A stretch of DNA of 64,000 bases, taken from positions 3,251 to 67,250 of IMG/VR virus record IMGVR_UViG_3300009506_000018. One strand, given 5' to 3'. Both the position numbers and the translations under genes were made by a program. This stretch comes from a virus. Below the pieces are notes generated by a model. That model had not been told where the DNA came from, searched no databases, and saw only the letters and a program-made list of their open reading frames with translations. Every line of letters begins with the position of its first letter. The first letter of the stretch is position 1. Shown here piece after piece: positions 8,011 through 55,023 of the stretch.

Positions 8011-10589
8011 TGACAAAGAAGGTAATCATCGACCTGCCTGTCGCCCCGGGCATTTATACCGAGGAGACAGATCGCGGCGCAAAGGGCCGATGGAAAACTG
8101 GCGACAAGGTGCGCTTCCGCTACGGCTTGCCGGAAAAGATCGGCGGCTGGGAACAGGTGCAGCCGATGTTCCTCGGCGTTGCCCGGGATATCCATGACTG
8201 GGCCGCACTGGATGGCTCGCTCTGGACCGCCATAGGCACCGACTGGAAACTGTACCTGTGGCAGGACAGTACCCTGTATGACATCACGCCCATCAGGCGG
8301 ACCACCTCGCTGGTCGATCCGTTCGACACCACCAACGGCAGCAGCATTGTCACGGTCACGGATACCGGCCATGGATCCATTGCCAATGACTTCGTCACCT
8401 TCTCAGGGGCCACGGCTGTCGGCGGGCTGACGATCAACGGCGAGTACCAGATCCTGTCCACGACCTTCAGCACCTACATCATCGACGTCGGGTCAAACGC
8501 GACCAGTACCGCCACTGGCGGGGGTACGGTGGCAGCCGAGTACCAGATCAACACGGGGCTGCGTTCTGGATCTCTGGCGAACGGCTACGGCATCTACGGT
8601 TACGGTGCTGACGATACCTCACTGCCGCTGAGCGAGCAGGGCTATGACACGCCCCGGCCCTCCAGTCAGGTGACGATCGCGGCACGGACGTGGAGCCTCG
8701 ACAACTGGGGCGAAGATCTGATCGCCTGCCCGTTCGGAAAATCGATCTACTGGTGGGACAGGACCACGGGAGCGGCCTCCAGAGCCATTCTCCTGCCCGA
8801 TGCGCCCGTCAACTGCAATGTGGCTATCATTTCCCAGCGGGACCGCCATCTCTTCGCCATGGGCTCCACAGAGCGGTTCAGCGGCGTTTTCGACCCGCTC
8901 CTGATCCGCTGGTGCTCTCAGGAGGACTTCGGGGACTGGATACCCACGGATACCAACACATCAGGCGACCTGCGGCTTTACAGGGGCTCTGCGATCATCT
9001 CGGCGGTCAAGACCCGGGGCCAGATCCTCGTCTTCACCGATGAGTCGGTTCACTCCGTGGATTACCTCGGCGGCTTCGATGTCTACGGCGTCAACGTGGT
9101 GGGCGAGAACGTCTCGATCCTCGGGCCGAATGCGGTGGTCGCCACCGACTACCGGGTCTTTTTCATGGGCGAGGGCGACTTCTTCATGTACGACGGCGTG
9201 CTGCGGGTGCTGCCGTGCGACGTCAGGAATCAGGTTTACGACAACCTGAACACCGACCAGAAGGCCAAATCCTTCGGTGGGCTCAACCGAGAATTCAACG
9301 AAATCTGGTTCTTCTATCCCGGGCAGGTCGGGCAGCAGGACCAGACGCAGGACACGTCCCAGACCGGCACCAATCCTTTCTTCCTGTACGAGAACGAGGG
9401 CAGCAATGTCGAGCTGGTCGGCGGCGGCGAAGAAGCGACCGTGATCGGCACCGGGCTGACCCTGACCACCGCACAGGCGAAGTTCGGCGACTATTCGGTG
9501 CAGGGCGACGGGACCACCGATGACAACGCTCTGCAGTGGAGCGGCAGCCAGTACTCGCTGGGCACCGGCACATGGACGATAGGCGGCTGGTGTTACCTGC
9601 CGACTGGCTCGTATTCGACCGGCGCTAACCCGTATGGCATCTGCGGCAACGAGATGCCCAACACCGGCACGTCGTGGGGCGGCACCAACCTCAAGGGCTG
9701 GAACATCCATCTGGTGCCGAACGTCGCCGGGGATTTCCAGTGGGGATTCAGCTATACGTCCGCTTCCGGCAGCCAGAACCGGATCGGGCTTACCACCATG
9801 ACTACGGCGCAGTTCCCGCTCGACACGTGGAACTGGTGGGTCGCCCAGCGCAGCGCGGGCAACCGTATCGACGTGTGGATGAACGGCGCATGGCTGGCGA
9901 CCGGCACGATCGATGCCAGCTTCGACGATGACCTCGGGCTGTTCACCATTGGCATGGGCAACGTGAATGGCTGGGGCGCTCCCGCCATGCGTAACTGGCC
10001 GGGTTACATCGACAACATCGTCGCCACCCGTGACGTGCTGTACAACACCAGCGGTCTGGATATCACGGTGCCTACCGTAGCCCCGACAACCGGCTACCCG
10101 TCGCCGGAGATCAATCGCTATGTGATGTACAACTACGAGGAGAACACGTGGTCGATCGGTTCGCTGGTCAGGACGGCATGGGCCGATCGCAGCCCGGTGC
10201 TGGAAAAGCCCTACGCGGCTTCCACCGACGGCTACCTGTACCAGCACGAAACCGGCGTGGACGACAACGGAGCGGCCATGACTTCTTATCTGGAGTCATA
10301 CGACATGGCGCTGCCTGAATCCGGGGAGTATCTGGTACATGTCGATCAGCTGATTCCTGATTTCCTGAGGCTGACTGGGTCAGTCGATGTCAGCCTCAAC
10401 GGACTCAAATACCCACAGGACACCACGCTCATCAGCAAGGGCCCGTTCACGGTGGCCCCGGGCACGCGGAAAATCAGCCTGCGATTCCGTGGCAGGCAGG
10501 TATCCCTCGATGTGCGCTCCGATGCTGTCGGGGACAAGTGGCGCATGGGCCAGTGGCGAGCACGGGTTGGAGCGCATGGTAAGCGGTAA
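8010..10589 (+). CDS. Tail nozzle / tubular protein B (P22 gp10-like) with inserted LamG domain
   Basis: 859 aa; DKVRFRYGLPEKIGGW, WSLDNWGEDL, IRWCSQEDF motifs; LamG insert 9321-10100. Confidence 0.75.
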   Translation: MTKKVIIDLPVAPGIYTEETDRGAKGRWKTGDKVRFRYGLPEKIGGWEQVQPMFLGVARDIHDWAALDGSLWTAIGTDWKLYLWQDSTLYDITPIRRTTSLVDPFDTTNGSSIVTVTDTGHGSIANDFVTFSGATAVGGLTINGEYQILSTTFSTYIIDVGSNATSTATGGGTVAAEYQINTGLRSGSLANGYGIYGYGADDTSLPLSEQGYDTPRPSSQVTIAARTWSLDNWGEDLIACPFGKSIYWWDRTTGAASRAILLPDAPVNCNVAIISQRDRHLFAMGSTERFSGVFDPLLIRWCSQEDFGDWIPTDTNTSGDLRLYRGSAIISAVKTRGQILVFTDESVHSVDYLGGFDVYGVNVVGENVSILGPNAVVATDYRVFFMGEGDFFMYDGVLRVLPCDVRNQVYDNLNTDQKAKSFGGLNREFNEIWFFYPGQVGQQDQTQDTSQTGTNPFFLYENEGSNVELVGGGEEATVIGTGLTLTTAQAKFGDYSVQGDGTTDDNALQWSGSQYSLGTGTWTIGGWCYLPTGSYSTGANPYGICGNEMPNTGTSWGGTNLKGWNIHLVPNVAGDFQWGFSYTSASGSQNRIGLTTMTTAQFPLDTWNWWVAQRSAGNRIDVWMNGAWLATGTIDASFDDDLGLFTIGMGNVNGWGAPAMRNWPGYIDNIVATRDVLYNTSGLDITVPTVAPTTGYPSPEINRYVMYNYEENTWSIGSLVRTAWADRSPVLEKPYAASTDGYLYQHETGVDDNGAAMTSYLESYDMALPESGEYLVHVDQLIPDFLRLTGSVDVSLNGLKYPQDTTLISKGPFTVAPGTRKISLRFRGRQVSLDVRSDAVGDKWRMGQWRARVGAHGKR

Positions 10590-11956
10590 TGGCGGACACT
10601 CGCGAAAGGCTCCCAGATTTCCCCACCGAAACCTACGATGGGTTTCGGATGCGCTCGATGGTGGACATCATCGAGCGTCGCCTGAGGGCGATCAATACCG
10701 GCCTGCTGGACCTTGACCGCGAAGTATCCCTATTCACCAGTGGCGGTAACTTCGCGCCCCTGAACCATACCCACGTCAGCGCAGAGATCACCGATCTCGG
10801 CAGCTACCTGACGGACATTACCGGGGAATCCATCTTCGACCTGATGGATGTCACCGGGCCAGCCGTGGATGGTTACATCCTGAAATACGACAGCGGTCTG
10901 GCATCGTTCGTGATGGTGGCCGAGGCATCTGGCGGCGGATCCGGCGATCGCTACATCGGATTCAGGGATGGCTATGGCAACTCGACGTCACTGTCCGGTG
11001 ACGAGTACTTCCGCTTCATCTCCACCAACTCGCTGCTGGAAGCTGTCGTTACCAACAACGAGGTGACCTACGGGGATGTTCTGAACCTGACGGTGCGCAA
11101 TGACCTCATCGACCACAACGTCCTCACCAACTACGTCGCCGACCAGCACGTCGCTCACACCGGAGTATCTCTTACTGCTGGGGCTGGTCTTACTGGCGGG
11201 GGGGATATATCTGCTTCGAGAACTTTCGATGTTGGCGCAGGCGAAGGCATCGCTGTCAATGCAGACGATGTGGCGCTCAGCTTCAGCAGCCTTACGTCGA
11301 ACACGATCAGCGGCACAGACATCATTGCGTTCTGGAATGGCGCGAACCACCGACAGGATACGTGGACGAACATCCAGAGCGCGATCTCGATAACCGAGTC
11401 GCAGATATCGGACTTTGGCAGCTACGGGGATCTCACTCTGAACGAGGTGATCACCGGCAGCTGGAGATCTCAGGGCGAATTCCAGTTTGGGCAGAATACC
11501 GATGCCAGCACCAACGACACCCTGTGGGTCGGCTCACAGGGCAACTTCTCTCTGGCCGGGGATGCGCAAATCACCAGCATGGTACTGCGCTATGCCACCA
11601 CGGACGGAACGACACAGGCGCTCACCACCGATGCGTCCGCCCCGGGGGCCAGCAACCAGATCCTGCTGCCAAACAATTCCTCATATCACGTGCGGGTGGA
11701 AATCACCTGCAAGAACACCGGGGCTCAGGAGTCCGGCGCATGGACGCTGGAAGGTGGCGCTGACCGGGCTGCAACTGCCGCATCGACAGGCATCAACGGG
11801 TTCGCGAAAACGACCCACCACAGGGATGACGCAACGTGGGATGTGGCAGCTGTGGCTGACACGACGAACGGGGCCGTCAGGATCAACGTCACAGGATCGG
11901 CTGGCAAGACAGTGCGCTGGGTCGGTCGCGTCTACATCACGGAGACAAGACACTAA
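10589..11956 (+). CDS. Tail fibre protein A
   Basis: 455 aa; short helical N-terminal anchor (RLPDFPTETYD...IERRL) followed by fibre motifs; C-terminal domain paralogous to next gene. Confidence 0.7.
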   Translation: MADTRERLPDFPTETYDGFRMRSMVDIIERRLRAINTGLLDLDREVSLFTSGGNFAPLNHTHVSAEITDLGSYLTDITGESIFDLMDVTGPAVDGYILKYDSGLASFVMVAEASGGGSGDRYIGFRDGYGNSTSLSGDEYFRFISTNSLLEAVVTNNEVTYGDVLNLTVRNDLIDHNVLTNYVADQHVAHTGVSLTAGAGLTGGGDISASRTFDVGAGEGIAVNADDVALSFSSLTSNTISGTDIIAFWNGANHRQDTWTNIQSAISITESQISDFGSYGDLTLNEVITGSWRSQGEFQFGQNTDASTNDTLWVGSQGNFSLAGDAQITSMVLRYATTDGTTQALTTDASAPGASNQILLPNNSSYHVRVEITCKNTGAQESGAWTLEGGADRAATAASTGINGFAKTTHHRDDATWDVAAVADTTNGAVRINVTGSAGKTVRWVGRVYITETRH

Positions 11957-45617: not shown

Positions 45618-45647
45618 AAGGGCCCCGTTGCGGGGCCCTTGCTTTTT
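45618..45647. terminator. Terminator between convergent operons
   Basis: AAGGGCCCCG-TTG-CGGGGCCCTT stem, TTTTT at 45643-45647. Confidence 0.8.
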
Positions 45648-49096: not shown

Positions 49097-49574
49097 CGTT
49101 CTCGCCCTCCTTCGTTCGCTCGGCGTACGGCGTCCAGTCCCGGGGGGACTTCATCTCGTCGCCGTAGCGGGCGATGTTGAACGGCAGCGTGTTAGCCACG
49201 GCGATGAGCCCGCCGATGATCTCGAACTCAGTTGAGTCCGAGCGGGCGGCGATGTCCTTCGAGGACTGGATCATGCGCAGCGTGGCGTGGGTCGCCTTGC
49301 GCAGAACGCTGTCTGCCTTCTTGCGACGCGGGTCGGACTCGGGCATGCGCGTATCGAGAAGGAGCGGGCCCTTGCCCCTGACCGTCTCGATGCGCTGCCA
49401 CCGCTTCCACGTCCCCTTCACCAGATTGCCGGAGTCAGCGAACGTGGTGTCCACCTTCTCCAGTATCCAGCCATTGGAACGAACAGACAGGGTCTGCTCG
49501 GCGGATCCGAGGGCCGTCTGCACCTTGCGGCGCAGACGGGCGATCTCGAAACCGTTCGCTTTCAGTGTTGCCAT
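49083..49574 (-). CDS. Hypothetical protein
   Basis: 163 aa, GGAGAACC RBS. Confidence 0.65.
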   Translation of the reverse strand: MATLKANGFEIARLRRKVQTALGSAEQTLSVRSNGWILEKVDTTFADSGNLVKGTWKRWQRIETVRGKGPLLLDTRMPESDPRRKKADSVLRKATHATLRMIQSSKDIAARSDSTEFEIIGGLIAVANTLPFNIARYGDEMKSPRDWTPYAERTKEGENDGTA

Positions 49575-49616
49575 TGGGTTCTCCAGTTCCCAGTGAGTGG
49601 TGAAATAATACCTGAC

Positions 49617-49916
49617 TCAGTCGGTCCCGTACAGCTTCTCGACCAGCGCCATGAAGGTCTTCGTTTCCTTGCTGGTGAGACGCTGCGACATCACGCCCAC
49701 GGTGGTGGCCTTGACGATCCGGCGGACGTCCTCGTTATCCAGCTCGATGTGGATCCGGTCGCCCTCCTGAATGGTCACGCCGTAGTGGTTCGGGATGTCG
49801 GTGTGCCAGCGTTGCCAGCGCGGATGCTGGTTGAGCGGGCTGCCGGTCCAGACGGGGATGGCGTGCTCGATGTTGCGCCGTTCCTTTCTGGCCCGGGAGA
49901 TCTTCCAGATAAGCAT
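49617..49916 (-). CDS. Hypothetical protein
   Basis: 99 aa, GGAGGT SD. Confidence 0.6.
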   Translation of the reverse strand: MLIWKISRARKERRNIEHAIPVWTGSPLNQHPRWQRWHTDIPNHYGVTIQEGDRIHIELDNEDVRRIVKATTVGVMSQRLTSKETKTFMALVEKLYGTD

Positions 49917-49918
49917 CG

Positions 49919-50464
49919 TTACACCTCCGCCTGATATACGTAGTCGGTCATATCGGAGACGGCGCTTTCGAGGTGGCTTTCCAGCTGCTCCTGCCAGTCG
50001 TTGTGGTCGGACTGGAATTCATCCGTGCCTTCCTCGCCATCGTCGTAGTGATTGCGATCAGGTTCCTCTTCCGCGTACTCATCGATTGACTCGATGTCGC
50101 TGATGGCGGACTCGACCGCATCGATGCGCTCCTGCAGAAGCTCTCCGGTCGGGGAGTACTGCAGCTCGTCGGGCATGTTGTCGAGGCTCGACTGCGTCTC
50201 GTCCCTGAGATCCTCCAGCTGGCTGACGACCTCGTCGCGCAGCTCGATCAGCTCATCGTTGGTTTCGACATTGCTGTCCTCGATGAACTCGCCGATGCTG
50301 CGCACCGTGCCGTAGTAAGCCGACTGGGTCAGCTGGCTCCCGCGTGGCGGGGTCTTCGAGTATCGCTTACCGCCGTAGCGGAACTTCCACCAGTAGTAGG
50401 GCTCGCCCGGCTGGGCGACTGGGTTGGCCTTGCGGGCCTTCTTCACGTAATGCACTCGTGGCAT
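49919..50464 (-). CDS. Bipartite basic-N/acidic-C protein
   Basis: 181 aa; YYWWKFRYGGKRYSKT then D/E-rich helices; GGAGAACC RBS. Confidence 0.7.
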   Translation of the reverse strand: MPRVHYVKKARKANPVAQPGEPYYWWKFRYGGKRYSKTPPRGSQLTQSAYYGTVRSIGEFIEDSNVETNDELIELRDEVVSQLEDLRDETQSSLDNMPDELQYSPTGELLQERIDAVESAISDIESIDEYAEEEPDRNHYDDGEEGTDEFQSDHNDWQEQLESHLESAVSDMTDYVYQAEV

Positions 50465-50482
50465 GTTGGTTCTCCTAAGTTG

Positions 50483-50550
50483 TGGCTTGCCATCATCGGG
50501 CCGGAGGGAGCCACCCTTCCGACGACCCCGGGAGTCCCGGGGTTTCGGCA
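50483..50550 (-). ncRNA. Type II hammerhead ribozyme HHR2 (variant core)
   Basis: UGCC-GAAA-CCCCGGG/CCCGGGG-UC cleavage, stem I, CCGAUGA-U-GGCA; loop UGGCU pairs with 3' AGCCA. Confidence 0.75.
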
Positions 50551-51021
50551 TCAGGCCGTCTCTGCGGCCTCAGGGCCGTAGATCTGGTAGTCATCGAGGG
50601 TATCCCCGTACTGGCGCTCCAGCGTCTCTACCACCTCGTCTCTGGAGGCGGCATCGATCTGGATGGTGCGTCGCTTGCAGCAGCCCTCGGGTACGCCGTC
50701 CTGATCCCTGAGCCAGAGGTCGCACTTGAAGCTGGTCAGGAAGTTGCCAGCGGCGGAGCCATAGACGCCCCGATACCAGTCGGCCTCGCCGAAGATGTCC
50801 ACGTCGTTGACGCGGCACACGACCCAGCCGAAGCTGGACCAGCGGTCCTTCGTCGGGGCCCAGTGGCGCTGCTCGCCGTAGTGGACCAGCCTGACCTCAC
50901 GGCGCTGGCCGACGTCCATGTTGGCGACGTCGTCCGGGCCGAACGGGAAGCACTGGTCGTAGCGCAGCATGTCGAGCGGGAACGAGCCGCGCCCGGTGAC
51001 GGTGAAAGTGACGGTGTTCAT
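50551..51021 (-). CDS. Conserved phage hypothetical protein
   Basis: 156 aa; FTVTGRGSFPLDMLRYDQCFP motif. Confidence 0.65.
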   Translation of the reverse strand: MNTVTFTVTGRGSFPLDMLRYDQCFPFGPDDVANMDVGQRREVRLVHYGEQRHWAPTKDRWSSFGWVVCRVNDVDIFGEADWYRGVYGSAAGNFLTSFKCDLWLRDQDGVPEGCCKRRTIQIDAASRDEVVETLERQYGDTLDDYQIYGPEAAETA

Positions 51022-51230
51022 TCGGTGTTCTCCTTCATGGCGCGGGCGATCTGCTCGCCCAGTGAATAGGTGCAGCTGTCCGAGAAGAACTTACCGTTCC
51101 AGCGGCAGCCGTAGCGATCGCGCATGATCTTCTTCCCGGCGACCGTATCAGGCTGCTGGAAGTAGAAAGCGTTCTCGCGGACGAGCTTCAGGGCCTCGTC
51201 CAGAACCGTATCGTTGACGTTGTCCTTCAT
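51018..51230 (-). CDS. Hypothetical protein
   Basis: 70 aa, GGAGG SD, ATGA overlaps. Confidence 0.6.
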   Translation of the reverse strand: MKDNVNDTVLDEALKLVRENAFYFQQPDTVAGKKIMRDRYGCRWNGKFFSDSCTYSLGEQIARAMKENTE

Positions 51231-51991
51231 CGCAGCCTCCTGATCGTGCCCAGCACGCGCCGCCCCATCAGGGACTGCTGGTTGCGGAGCATGCGCTCGT
51301 CGTCGTCGGCCTTGCTGTCGATCGACCAGAGCTTGCCGGAGTCGATGATGACCTCGACCTCGCTCTCGCCGTACCTGTCGGCCACCATCTTTTTGGCGTT
51401 CTTGATGGCGGTGCCGAGATTGGCCCACGTCACTTCCATGCGACGGTCGCGGGCGAACTCCAGCACGGACTTGTTGTTGTAGTCCTTGCCCCTGACAAGC
51501 GTGTCACGGATCTCGTAGGGCTCTTCCTTGCCCGTCTGCCAATTGCGGCGGGTGGTCTGGCGCAGCCGGGCCAGCGTGAAGCGAGCGTGCCTGTGGTCGG
51601 TTCTCAGCTCGTTGTCGAGCAGCTTCTGGTAGGCCGCGCCGATGGCATCTTCCTGAGACTTCTCCACCGCCTTGCGGAAGACCTCCCGAACGCGCTCGAA
51701 CAGGTCGGCACGCTCGATGATCACGCGGGCCGCGCCGACAGCCTTCTCGAAGTCCTCGCGGTTTCCGGCGCGGATCTTGTCGCATGCCTCGCGGGCCAGC
51801 CGACGAAGATCCTGTTCGGCCAGTCGGCAGAACTCGAACGCAGCGTAGGCGGCGTCCGGGTCGTAGCGATCGGTACCGGCCCACAGGTCCATGGCGAAGG
51901 TCGCTCCGCTGGTGAGCAGATTGACCTTCTCGAATTCCTCGGCTCGCTGGCGAACAGCGGCGGAGGTGTGGCTGGAAAGATTCAGTTTCAT
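51227..51991 (-). CDS. Hypothetical helical protein
   Basis: 254 aa, GGAGAACC RBS. Confidence 0.65.
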   Translation of the reverse strand: MKLNLSSHTSAAVRQRAEEFEKVNLLTSGATFAMDLWAGTDRYDPDAAYAAFEFCRLAEQDLRRLAREACDKIRAGNREDFEKAVGAARVIIERADLFERVREVFRKAVEKSQEDAIGAAYQKLLDNELRTDHRHARFTLARLRQTTRRNWQTGKEEPYEIRDTLVRGKDYNNKSVLEFARDRRMEVTWANLGTAIKNAKKMVADRYGESEVEVIIDSGKLWSIDSKADDDERMLRNQQSLMGRRVLGTIRRLR

Positions 51992-52001
51992 GTGGTTCTC
52001 C

Positions 52002-52889
52002 TTACAGTCCAAACTTCGATCGGCAGATCGGGCCGATGCCCAGCTCGATCGACACTCCGTTGGTCAGCTCGCGACCGCAGCAGCAGCACTGCCCGGTCCG
52101 CTGACCCTGCACCTTGACGGCGTTGGCCGGATCCTTGTCGATCTCGACCAGCGTCTCGACCACCTCGGGCGGGCAGTTCCGCGCCGGGGTGAACTTGCCA
52201 TCGGTGTCGATGCGCCCGAACCAGCGGTTGTCCGGGTAGCGCCGACCGTCGGTGATGTTGACCGAGCCCGGGTTGCGGGAGCGGCCACCGGCCAGCTGCA
52301 GAACGATGCGTGCGCCTGACGAATCCACCAGCCGCAGCTTCGGGTACTTCAGGCCGTTCTCCCGGGCCGTCTGCAGGTAGCGCAGGCAGTTCGGCAGCTC
52401 GGCCACTGGCTGGGGCTGGCTGGCCTTGTGCTCGGCATCCTTCGCGAGGATCTTCTCGACCGCCGCCTGCTGGCGCTCGGTGAGGGATCCGTACTGGTGG
52501 ATGGCGGAGTGCAGGCTGGCAGCGAACTCGGAGCGGTGCTCGTTGGCCTTCAGCCACGCGGTCACCTGCGGGTGGGCCTCCATGTACGCCTGCGCCGCGT
52601 TCGCCTTCTCAGCGGCCTGACGTTCGCTCCTGCGGGCAGCCTGCTCGCGACGCTTCGCCCGGGCAGCCACACCGGCAGCATCGGTGCGGATCTTCTGGTT
52701 GCTCTTGCCAGTGCCGTTGCAGCTGAAGCAGCGCCCGGCGGACCAGTTGCCGCGCCAGACACCGGAACCGCCGCACTTGCGACAGGGGGCGTTGGCGTAC
52801 TCGGCGGCGTGCTCAAGGAAGTCCTTGTGCTGCGCCTCGCCCTCGGGGGCGGTGATGATCTCGTCGAGATCGGTGAAGTCAATGCTCAT
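52002..52889 (-). CDS. DnaJ-type Zn finger plus DUF6011-like protein
   Basis: CRKCGGSG, CFSCNGTG; C-terminal CCCCGRELTNGVSIELGIGPIC. Confidence 0.7.
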   Translation of the reverse strand: MSIDFTDLDEIITAPEGEAQHKDFLEHAAEYANAPCRKCGGSGVWRGNWSAGRCFSCNGTGKSNQKIRTDAAGVAARAKRREQAARRSERQAAEKANAAQAYMEAHPQVTAWLKANEHRSEFAASLHSAIHQYGSLTERQQAAVEKILAKDAEHKASQPQPVAELPNCLRYLQTARENGLKYPKLRLVDSSGARIVLQLAGGRSRNPGSVNITDGRRYPDNRWFGRIDTDGKFTPARNCPPEVVETLVEIDKDPANAVKVQGQRTGQCCCCGRELTNGVSIELGIGPICRSKFGL

Positions 52890-52906
52890 GTGGTTCTCCT
52901 TCAGTG

Positions 52907-52972
52907 GGCCTGTCTCATCAGTGCCGGTAGGCCATCTCCGGCAGACCCCGCACCTCCGGGCGGGGTTTCGAC
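52907..52972 (-). ncRNA. Type II hammerhead ribozyme HHR1 (canonical core)
   Basis: GUC-GAAA-CCCCGC/GCGGGG-UC cleavage, UGCCGG/CCGGCA stem I, CUGAUGA-GAC; loop GGCCU pairs with 3' AGGCC. Confidence 0.88.
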
Positions 52973-52974
52973 TG

Positions 52975-53808
52975 TCAGTACCTGCGCCCGCCGAACGCGC
53001 CGGATTCCAGCGCGGGCGATTCGTTGATCAGCAGCTTCTCGACGCGCTCCTTGATCACGTCGCCGTAGTGGTTGCCAGCCCGCTTCCAGACGGCGCGGCG
53101 GATGGCGTCCTTCTTCTGGATCAGGGCGGCTTCGCGACGGCCCCTCAGGATCTCCAGCTGGGCCTCGACGTCGGCGATCTCCTGCTCGGCTGCCCGATGC
53201 AGGGCGTAGTAGCGCAGGTCATCGCCCAGCGCCTTCTCGACGTACTCGGCGTTCAGGTTCTTCACGAACACGAAGTTGTCGCGCAGGATCTGCTCGGCGT
53301 CCTTGTTGGCGTGGTCGGCGACGACCTGCAGGTGCTTCGTGATGGTCTGGCAGGCCTCCCAGATCAGCCGGTCGCGCCCGCCGTCCTCGCGCAGCGTGTG
53401 CAGCAGGTCATGGATGAGCTGCTTCTTCTTGTTGCGCTTGCTCAGCTCGGTGCGGCAGCCGCGCACGCTCAGCTCAATCCTGCGCTCGACGGTGAACACG
53501 CCGGGCTTGCTCTCGTGCCCGCCGTAGCCGGTGCCTCGCGACTGCGACAGCTCCTTCGTGGATCCGGGGACGGCTTCGTACAGGCGCTCCCACAGTTCGT
53601 CGGCGAGGCGCACGGACACGCTGACGACGAAGCTGGCGTACTCAGGATGGTTGTCGAGCCAGTCAGGCACGTTGGTGACCTTGCCGTCGAGCAGCTGGGT
53701 GTTGCGCTCGGACTGGATGACGAGGTCACCCTCGTTGACTTCGCGGTTGACCGTCACGAACGCACGGTTGTCGTTGTACGGGCTGATGGTGAAAAGCTGG
53801 TTGGTCAT
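52975..53808 (-). CDS. Hypothetical protein
   Basis: 277 aa MTNQLFTISP..., GGAGAACC RBS. Confidence 0.65.
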   Translation of the reverse strand: MTNQLFTISPYNDNRAFVTVNREVNEGDLVIQSERNTQLLDGKVTNVPDWLDNHPEYASFVVSVSVRLADELWERLYEAVPGSTKELSQSRGTGYGGHESKPGVFTVERRIELSVRGCRTELSKRNKKKQLIHDLLHTLREDGGRDRLIWEACQTITKHLQVVADHANKDAEQILRDNFVFVKNLNAEYVEKALGDDLRYYALHRAAEQEIADVEAQLEILRGRREAALIQKKDAIRRAVWKRAGNHYGDVIKERVEKLLINESPALESGAFGGRRY

Positions 53809-53821
53809 GTCGGTTCTCCAG

Positions 53822-54073
53822 TTACTTGCGAAGGGCCCGCTCGATGCGGGCTTCGATGACGTCGTACTCTCCGGCGCTGACGATCTCGTTCTGTTCGAGG
53901 TCGATGGCGTCGTCCAGAGACAGGTGGCCCAGATTGCCGCCGAGGATCTCGACGAACCGCTCTTCCACCTGCCACAGGTCATCGCCCCATTCGAGGCAGT
54001 AGTCGATGGCGAGCTGGTGGGCGGTCATGGCGACCTTGTGGGCGCACAGCTTCGGGTTGGTGTCGATGCTCAT
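53822..54073 (-). CDS. Acidic hypothetical protein
   Basis: 83 aa, GAGGAG SD. Confidence 0.6.
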   Translation of the reverse strand: MSIDTNPKLCAHKVAMTAHQLAIDYCLEWGDDLWQVEERFVEILGGNLGHLSLDDAIDLEQNEIVSAGEYDVIEARIERALRK

Positions 54074-54263: not shown

Positions 54264-54308
54264 GTCGGTTCTCCAGTTGTGCCCCCGAACAACTCGGGGG
54301 GAGACTTA

Positions 54309-54337
54309 AAAATACGCCTGACAATGTCACTAGTCAA
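54309..54337 (-). promoter_or_regulatory. Sigma70-type early promoter with palindromic spacer
   Basis: TTGACT-N17-TATTTT on minus; TGACA-A-TGTCA palindrome 54319-54329 in the spacer. Confidence 0.75.
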
Positions 54338-54384: not shown

Positions 54385-55023
54385 ATGACGAAGCGCGAAC
54401 TGGCCTTCTGTGATTACTACGTCGAGCGACGCAGCGCAGGAATTGCGGCGGAGCTGGCCGGGTATTCGCCGGGCTGGACGAAGCGGGCCTACCAGATCCT
54501 CCAGCGACCGCACATACGGGAGCGCATCGCTCAGCTGTCGAAAGCGGTGGAGGAAAGGTCAGTCACCAACGGTGCCGAGGTCGTCAACGAGATCGCGAAG
54601 GTGGCCTTCCTCGATGTGGCCTCCTTCCTGAAGGACGATCCGCACCAGCCGGGGGGCAAGATCTGGAAGTCTCCAGACGAGCTGACACCCGAACAGCGGG
54701 CAGCCATCTCACAGGTCCACATCCACGACTTCGAGTTCGTGGCTGGGCAGGACGACGACGGCAACGATGTCGTCGAGATCCGCCAGACCTACAGCTACCA
54801 GTTCCACGACAAGATGAACGCGCTGGAGAAGCTCGGCAAGCACTTCCAGATCTTCGGCGAAACCCACACCACCAACATCAATCTCAACCGTTTCTCGAAC
54901 CTCCCAGAAGACGTGCTGCACAGGCTGGAAGATGAGCTGCGCGACGTGCTGGAGGGCGAGTACCGGGTGATGGAGCCTGCTGATGCCCCGCGTCTACCTG
55001 ATGATCGAAGACCTAAGCACTGA
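54385..55023 (+). CDS. terS: Terminase small subunit
   Basis: TKRELAFCDYYVE..AAELAGYS..AYQIL..I..RI; HDKMNALEKLGKH. Confidence 0.88.
   Translation: MTKRELAFCDYYVERRSAGIAAELAGYSPGWTKRAYQILQRPHIRERIAQLSKAVEERSVTNGAEVVNEIAKVAFLDVASFLKDDPHQPGGKIWKSPDELTPEQRAAISQVHIHDFEFVAGQDDDGNDVVEIRQTYSYQFHDKMNALEKLGKHFQIFGETHTTNINLNRFSNLPEDVLHRLEDELRDVLEGEYRVMEPADAPRLPDDRRPKH

Follow-up and report, generated by a model that had tools for sequence, protein, structure and literature searches.

The window analysed here, a stretch of viral DNA of 64,000 nucleotides (nt) that covers bases 3251-67250 of the 72,059-bp record IMGVR_UViG_3300009506_000018, which has direct terminal repeats, carries two type II hammerhead ribozymes, HH1 and HH2, in the same orientation within a minus-strand operon. 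Each occupies the gap that separates the stop codon of a gene from the ribosome-binding site of the gene that follows, and we consider it likely that the two act as independent self-cleaving elements that process a polycistronic RNA. The first-pass annotation of this DNA had reported two such ribozymes, with predicted cuts at 52944/52943 and 50524/50523 and four genes in between; these readings hold, and both Rfam and a hand-written descriptor recognize the pair. The ribozymes and the ribosome-binding sites that follow them are located as follows.

52904-52973, minus strand: HH1, canonical type II hammerhead (Rfam RF02276, Hammerhead_II)
52892-52899, minus strand: GGAGAACC ribosome-binding site of the first gene after HH1
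50480-50550, minus strand: HH2, type II hammerhead with a variant core (RF02276, below the gathering score)
50468-50475, minus strand: GGAGAACC ribosome-binding site of the gene after HH2

When the whole window is scanned with Rfam, HH1 is the sole match above threshold (49.3 bits against a gathering score of 37; E 4e-7). Its catalytic core is complete (CUGAUGA, GAAA, the A-U closing pair and the GUC that precedes the cut), stems I and III are capped and stem II is open. Stem II is formed by GUC/GAC, stem III by 6 bp plus the A15.1-U16.1 pair and stem I by 6 bp, while loop I forms a pseudoknot of 5 bp with the 3' tail; the predicted cut (GUC/U) falls between 52944 and 52943. The descriptor, written for type II hammerheads and run on the 64-kb window, the 72-kb genome and shuffled windows, returned HH1 and HH2 only, in both the window and the genome, compared with 0.1 matches per shuffled window. 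Two weaker candidates, both of which failed an E of 0.1 in a joint scan, were discarded as chance matches: a possible third hammerhead just outside the window (G000:67299-67360, 18.8 bits), which has GUAA in place of GAAA and lacks stem I, and a match of 15.8 bits in the related genome G001.

The window was compared with related stretches from G001 (a 71.7-kb IMG/VR genome), from the Logan contigs L008 and L009 and from the JGI contig L010, in which the DUF6011 protein encoded directly after HH1 is 79, 86, 83 and 59% identical, respectively, to that of the window (tblastn). Across five HH1-type copies from four genomes, 100% of the cells are paired, against 36-44% in slid controls, and four pairs show substitutions in both partners, of which two belong to stem III and one each to stem I and the pseudoknot. 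These compensatory pairs, together with the complete pairing, indicate that the RNA fold is under selection.

HH2 departs from the family in its core, which reads CCGAUGA (the U4C variant) with an extra U after A9 and so breaks the core consensus, all of the remaining core positions being present. It scores 33.1 bits in a permissive scan of 49500-54000 (E 5e-4), below the gathering score of 37, and reaches an E of 1.9e-6 in a whole-genome search; as its catalytic core is incomplete, we class HH2 as a core variant of this family and not as a canonical member. In stem II, UGCC pairs with GGCA; 7 bp plus A15.1-U16.1 make up stem III, and stem I contains about 9 bp and a single mismatch. Loop I and the 3' tail pair in the pseudoknot UGGCU/AGCCA, which is a requirement of the family consensus. 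The type II topology of three helices and a pseudoknot is thus present, with 97% of cells paired and one compensatory pair in stem II, and folding to minimum energy recovers the hammerhead with its stems II, III and I. The predicted cut (GUC/G) falls between 50524 and 50523.

The core variant raises the question of whether HH2 is active at all. Were it decaying or already inactivated by U4C and the extra U, only HH1 would cut and no 2420-nt RNA would be released. The orthologues of HH2 in G001, L008 and L009 all carry the canonical CUGAUGA and a GUC/GAC stem II (33.9 bits in G001 and L009, 37.3 in L008), from which it follows that U4C is derived in the lineage of the window, and the contig of the source sample, which carries the same HH2 sequence, shows this variant alone. 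Moreover, U4C considerably lowers activity in vitro, yet it suffices in vivo for viroid infectivity (Perreault et al., 2011; PMC3088659). Of the 72 positions of HH2, only four differ from the L008 orthologue, and these lie in the core or stem II; the flanking DNA is 78-88% identical. One of the stem II changes, from U-A to C-G, is compensatory, and having arisen in the same lineage as U4C it keeps, and even strengthens, the pairing. The identity outside the core and stem II, the compensatory pair and the minimum-energy fold argue against decay, and the fold of HH2 still looks selected. We therefore regard a loss of HH2 activity as unlikely, though well short of negligible; being a U4C variant, HH2 probably cuts more slowly than HH1. 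A 'skip' joint in run X2, considered as a possible deletion, turned out to be a diverged relative that aligns at conserved spots only.

The same core is found elsewhere. Well-formed, conserved type II hammerheads with CCGAUGA occur in four unrelated viral contigs (L080:10897-10955, L086:3072-3129, L109:3157-3215 on the minus strand and L120:2215-2273), each about 300 nt from a canonical hammerhead. Their presence beside canonical copies also speaks against simple inactivation, and U4C may be a recurrent variant in phages that is tolerated or tuned.

Both ribozymes fit tightly into their gene junctions. HH1 starts 1-2 nt past the stop codon (TGA, 52977-52975) of a gene of 277 amino acids (aa), and HH2 starts directly past that (TGA, 50553-50551) of a 156-aa gene; about 20 nt beyond each ribozyme follow GGAGAACC and an ATG. 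The two predicted cuts are 2420 nt apart. The first-pass description of each ribozyme as lying after a stop codon and before GGAGAACC is correct, but GGAGAACC is not specific to the ribozymes: the window contains 19 copies, where 2.4 would be expected, and ten of them lie in the ribozyme operon. Further copies on the minus strand are found, for example, at 54267-54274, 53812-53819, 51994-52001 and 49577-49584, and the motif marks the starts of the minus-strand operon genes and of some replication genes. From this distribution we take GGAGAACC to be the usual, lineage-specific extended ribosome site of the phage and not part of the ribozyme unit. A folding comparison, aimed at a possible release of the ribosome site by cleavage, found this site only weakly paired in both the cleaved and the uncleaved leaders. 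At the HH2 junction, an ATG that overlaps the upstream stop codon (TGATG, 50553-50549) opens a frame on the minus strand (49919-50551) that runs through the whole of HH2 and continues in frame into the following 181-aa gene, giving a 210-aa open reading frame; the gene calls of relatives begin after the ribosome site, and the read-through frame is probably due to chance.

To place this layout among viral hammerheads, we used an exact pattern for type II hammerheads with the same stem II, which matched at least 120 IMG/VR stretches; apart from G001, none of these loci shares genes with the window phage. Among the matches listed, the same-strand stop codon of an open reading frame of at least 50 aa lies no more than 60 nt upstream of the ribozyme in 175 of 191 cases (median 0), and a same-strand start lies no more than 80 nt downstream in 178 of 191 (median 23 nt). 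Both are found around 165 of the 191 hammerheads (86%; 119 unrelated loci), compared with 22 of 191 random positions, and the arrangement of stop codon, ribozyme and ribosome site is thus the rule for the type II class. The distances in the window, 2 and 22 nt to stop and start for HH1 and 1 and 25 nt for HH2, conform to it. Again among the matches listed, 51 of 118 locus-strands (43%) hold two or more same-strand hammerheads, up to nine, with a median spacing of 407 nt and a 90th percentile of 1146 nt; only the 2.4-kb spacing is unusual at the window locus. Denser arrays are seen in L031 (IMGVR_UViG_3300008255_000242), with seven to eight type II hammerheads within 3 kb (8402-11318), and in L070 (IMGVR_UViG_3300000217_000001), with nine descriptor matches in a 14-kb locus. 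The arrangement itself has already been described for phage hammerheads, and the window is a further case of it (Perreault et al., 2011; PMC3088659).

In the relatives, the ribozymes come and go singly. HH1 and HH2 both occupy the same gene junctions in G001, L008 and L009, where homologues of the 277-aa gene (62-92% identical) precede HH1; an exact pattern scan of metagenome and viral collections for further HH2 orthologues gave only G001. L008 carries a third hammerhead, HH0 (47.3 bits), one gene upstream in the same operon. Alignment shows it as a clean insert of about 78 nt, placed after a stop codon and before CTGGAGAACC; the corresponding junction of the window joins the same pair of genes and has the same ribosome site, but no ribozyme. 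HH0 is 82% identical to HH1, ribosome site included, which suggests that it arose by copying of the unit. In addition, the genes between the HH1 and HH2 sites number four in the window, five in L008 and three in L009. The gain or loss of single units, as at the L008 insertion, shows that the ribozymes are not the two ends of one fixed cassette, and the idea of a pair designed to excise four particular genes, put forward in the first pass, is not supported. Its more general proposal, a protein-free processing of mRNA, is the best reading of the locus and also the published one (Perreault et al., 2011; PMC3088659; PMC6765202); for polycistronic transcripts, a 2019 review still lists such processing as a suggestion in need of further work (PMC6765202).

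We propose the following course of events, which would apply if the operon is co-transcribed as a whole, probably by the host RNA polymerase. Each ribozyme would fold and cut after its GUC, in the nascent or the completed RNA, and the primary RNA would yield three pieces: a three-gene head, a four-gene middle segment and the remainder. The second cut, by HH2, may be partial or delayed owing to U4C. Upstream of each cut, the RNA would close with the GC-rich hairpin of stem III, which would bear a single overhanging base and a 2',3'-cyclic phosphate. Downstream of each cut, the new 5'-OH would sit directly at the base of the stem I hairpin, with an exposed ribosome site some 20 nt further on. 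RNase E favours single-stranded 5' ends that bear a monophosphate, and a 3' exonuclease requires a tail that is single-stranded; given these preferences, both cleavage ends should resist attack. The stability and translation of the segments could in this way be uncoupled from each other, with independent lifetimes.

Several points weigh against processing by two ribozymes, beginning with the core and the score of HH2 described above. The effect on stability and translation is an analogy with synthetic ribozyme insulators. The search of sequencing runs for the locus returned only sediment DNA metagenomes, and a search restricted to RNA listed none. At the head of the operon, the promoter call is a weak one, namely a match to the consensus in a scan that found two sites against 1.1 expected. 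Finally, no hammerheads are present at these junctions in L010, in spite of its DUF6011 homologue, or in L132-L136, whose 181-aa protein is 58-72% identical to that of the window. Conservation of the pair around the same genes, an open point of the first pass, therefore extends to G001, L008 and L009, with a variable number of genes, and fails in these other stretches; the absence of the ribozymes from distant relatives with the same genes implies that their role is dispensable.

It may also be asked whether the units of about 70 nt act mainly as DNA, as shared sequences for module exchange between phages, with RNA cleavage being incidental. The operon is strongly mosaic, neighbouring genes being 37-94% identical to the same relative, many further contigs of the same metagenomes contain a match to the 3' half of HH1, and the likeness of HH0 to HH1 would suit the copying of units. 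However, the breakpoints of the mosaic lie inside genes or between cassette genes and not at the ribozymes, and the compensatory changes in three helices and the pseudoknot point to selection on the RNA fold, which makes a role mainly as DNA very unlikely. Gene swapping exactly at the ribozyme boundaries is likewise not seen, as breakpoints are found inside the cassette and inside the 181-aa gene instead. In the latter region, the segment 50320-50554, comprising HH2 and the first 145 nt or so of the 181-aa gene, is 91% identical to L008. The whole 181-aa protein is 37-42% identical to those of the hammerhead-bearing relatives and 58-72% identical to those of the hammerhead-less L132, L133 and L135. 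This contrast along the gene implies a recombination breakpoint inside 49919-50464.

The reading that survives least well is the joining of the excised 2420-nt RNA, by the host RtcB or by the reverse hammerhead reaction, into a circular polycistronic mRNA. Hammerhead ends (5'-OH and 2',3'-cyclic phosphate) have the right chemistry for RtcB. The 3' end of the cassette is the 5' half of HH2 and its 5' end is the 3' half of HH1, and the two could pair through a stem II that is perfect in G001, L008 and L009 and has a single mismatch in the window (UGCC against GACA), as the first pass had noted. Its corollary that the junction may re-cleave poorly applies to the window only, since the perfect junctions of the relatives should re-cleave. 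The stem II shared by the phage group (GUC/GAC in the relatives) means that any upstream product could pair with any downstream one, so that joining might either circularize the four-gene segment or link its flanks and skip it; we hold both outcomes to be most improbable. The shared stem II is the commonest among viral type II hammerheads (at least 120 loci), the helix that would hold ends 2.4 kb apart has only 3-4 bp, and the number of ribozymes and the intervening content vary among close relatives. No RtcB or PF09414-type RNA ligase encoded by the phage was found; a search of the phage for the Rnl1 family also found none, but its control likewise found nothing in 14 control genomes. As 2420 is not a multiple of 3, a circle would have no endless reading frame. 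Spliced or circular products of comparable arrangements were sought by Perreault et al. (2011), and none were detected (PMC3088659). If it were true, such joining would amount to a protein-free alternative splicing of mRNA or to a circular polycistronic mRNA in a phage, and this would change current understanding; with the circle so improbable and without support here, the locus leaves that understanding as it stands.

The DNA sequencing runs that hold the window are marine-sediment metagenomes, and its source is a 72-kb tailed phage from marine sediment. A giant open reading frame had raised the suspicion of an N4-like phage, but the 4544-aa protein that it encodes carries SLT, DUF7178 and LPD38 domains, which rule this out and mark it as a polyvalent protein that is ejected, rather than as a virion RNA polymerase. 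The operon runs on the minus strand from about 54300 to 45650 and consists of small, mostly uncharacterized genes; around both ribozyme sites, the genes overlap or are separated by gaps of no more than 13 nt. The promoter and the genes around the ribozymes are the following.

54385-55023, plus strand: terminase small subunit
54309-54337, minus strand: candidate sigma-70-like promoter (TTGACT-17 nt-TATTTT) from a consensus scan, at the head of the operon and divergent from the small terminase gene
52975-53808, minus strand: 277-aa gene of unknown function, the last before HH1 (stop TGA 52977-52975)
52002-52889, minus strand: 295-aa phage protein of unknown function with a C-terminal DUF6011 domain (phrog_4046)
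51227-51991, minus strand: 254-aa gene of unknown function
51018-51230, minus strand: 70-aa gene, present or absent among relatives (two other small genes instead in L008)
50551-51021, minus strand: 156-aa gene with a weak phrog_11674 match, whose stop (TGA 50553-50551) abuts HH2
49919-50464, minus strand: 181-aa gene (phrog_4068), the first after HH2

The four open reading frames between the cuts, of 295, 254, 70 and 156 aa, all start with ATG (at 52889, 51991, 51230 and 51021, respectively). Searches of Pfam, PHROGs and the ESM Atlas with the flanked genes returned only DUF6011/phrog_4046 and unnamed phage clusters. The 181-aa gene is widespread in phages of about 70 kb, in most of which no hammerhead precedes it. 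Calling the operon 'early' is a reasonable inference from the sigma-70-like promoter and the gene content. No convincing internal terminator was found on the minus strand of the operon; where the operon ends, a strong GC-rich hairpin of 10 bp followed by a T-run on the plus strand (45618-45640) is likely to be a terminator between convergent units. Presence of the homologue of the 70-aa gene varies even inside the G001 assembly. The two contig ends of G001 (L004:7496-7947 and L006:1-246) overlap with 96-99% identity, and one copy is about 200 nt longer, the extra sequence being this homologue; the mismatch implies that the assembly merges two strain variants that differ by the 70-aa gene. Despite its label as linear, the G001 record is circularly permuted.

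The role of the hundreds of phage hammerheads is unsettled, and each well-defined natural arrangement can therefore serve as a test case. The present locus combines, in one operon, a canonical ribozyme with a second that carries U4C and a compensated stem II and appears to be attenuated naturally. L008 and the window, in which one gene junction is the same apart from a complete ribozyme unit, offer a natural plus/minus comparison, and the survey turns the position of phage type II hammerheads, between a stop codon and the next start, into a quantitative rule.

Among known systems, viroid-like RNAs and retrozymes share with the window the release by two cuts of an RNA with 5'-OH and 2',3'-cyclic phosphate ends, whose halves could rebuild a hammerhead at the junction. 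They are, however, about 0.2-1 kb long, mostly use type III or type I hammerheads and replicate or retrotranspose through observed circles, whereas the segment in the window would be a 2.4-kb protein-coding phage mRNA, known from sequence alone. The early mRNA of phage T7 is cut between cistrons by RNase III, a host protein enzyme that acts on RNA hairpins, and RiboJ is an engineered ribozyme insulator. As in both, a polycistronic RNA would be cut between cistrons, its ends protected by hairpins and the expression of neighbouring genes uncoupled; unlike in both, the RNA of the window would cut itself, and do so naturally, the effect on expression being proposed by analogy.

Closer in kind are the three type II hammerheads of Desulfovibrio vulgaris, which lie near hypothetical or phage-like genes and give 2',3'-cyclic phosphate and 5'-OH ends in vivo (cyPhyRNA-seq; PMC8782182). 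They belong to the same Rfam family, and two of the three are about 300 nt apart on one strand; they are chromosomal and experimentally proven, whereas the window phage is metagenomic and its ribozymes are read from its genome. The nearest parallel is with the clusters in transcripts of prophages and phages in which hammerheads flank one gene or a short block of genes (Perreault et al., 2011; PMC3088659). Three such prophage arrangements cut as expected in vitro (transcripts of about 2 kb), one of them also in E. coli, and the authors proposed that long phage RNAs are cut into operon-length or single-gene-length mRNAs. The window pair differs in its spacing of 2.4 kb and four genes, in the U4C core of one member and in its host lineage, that of a sediment phage of 72 kb that encodes a polyvalent protein of 4544 aa, for which we found no prior description of hammerheads. 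It agrees with these clusters in its type II fold with a pseudoknot between loop I and the tail and in the defining traits of clustered phage hammerheads: at least two ribozymes on the same strand, set in the intergenic gaps of a phage operon, around genes that vary and are mostly of unknown function.

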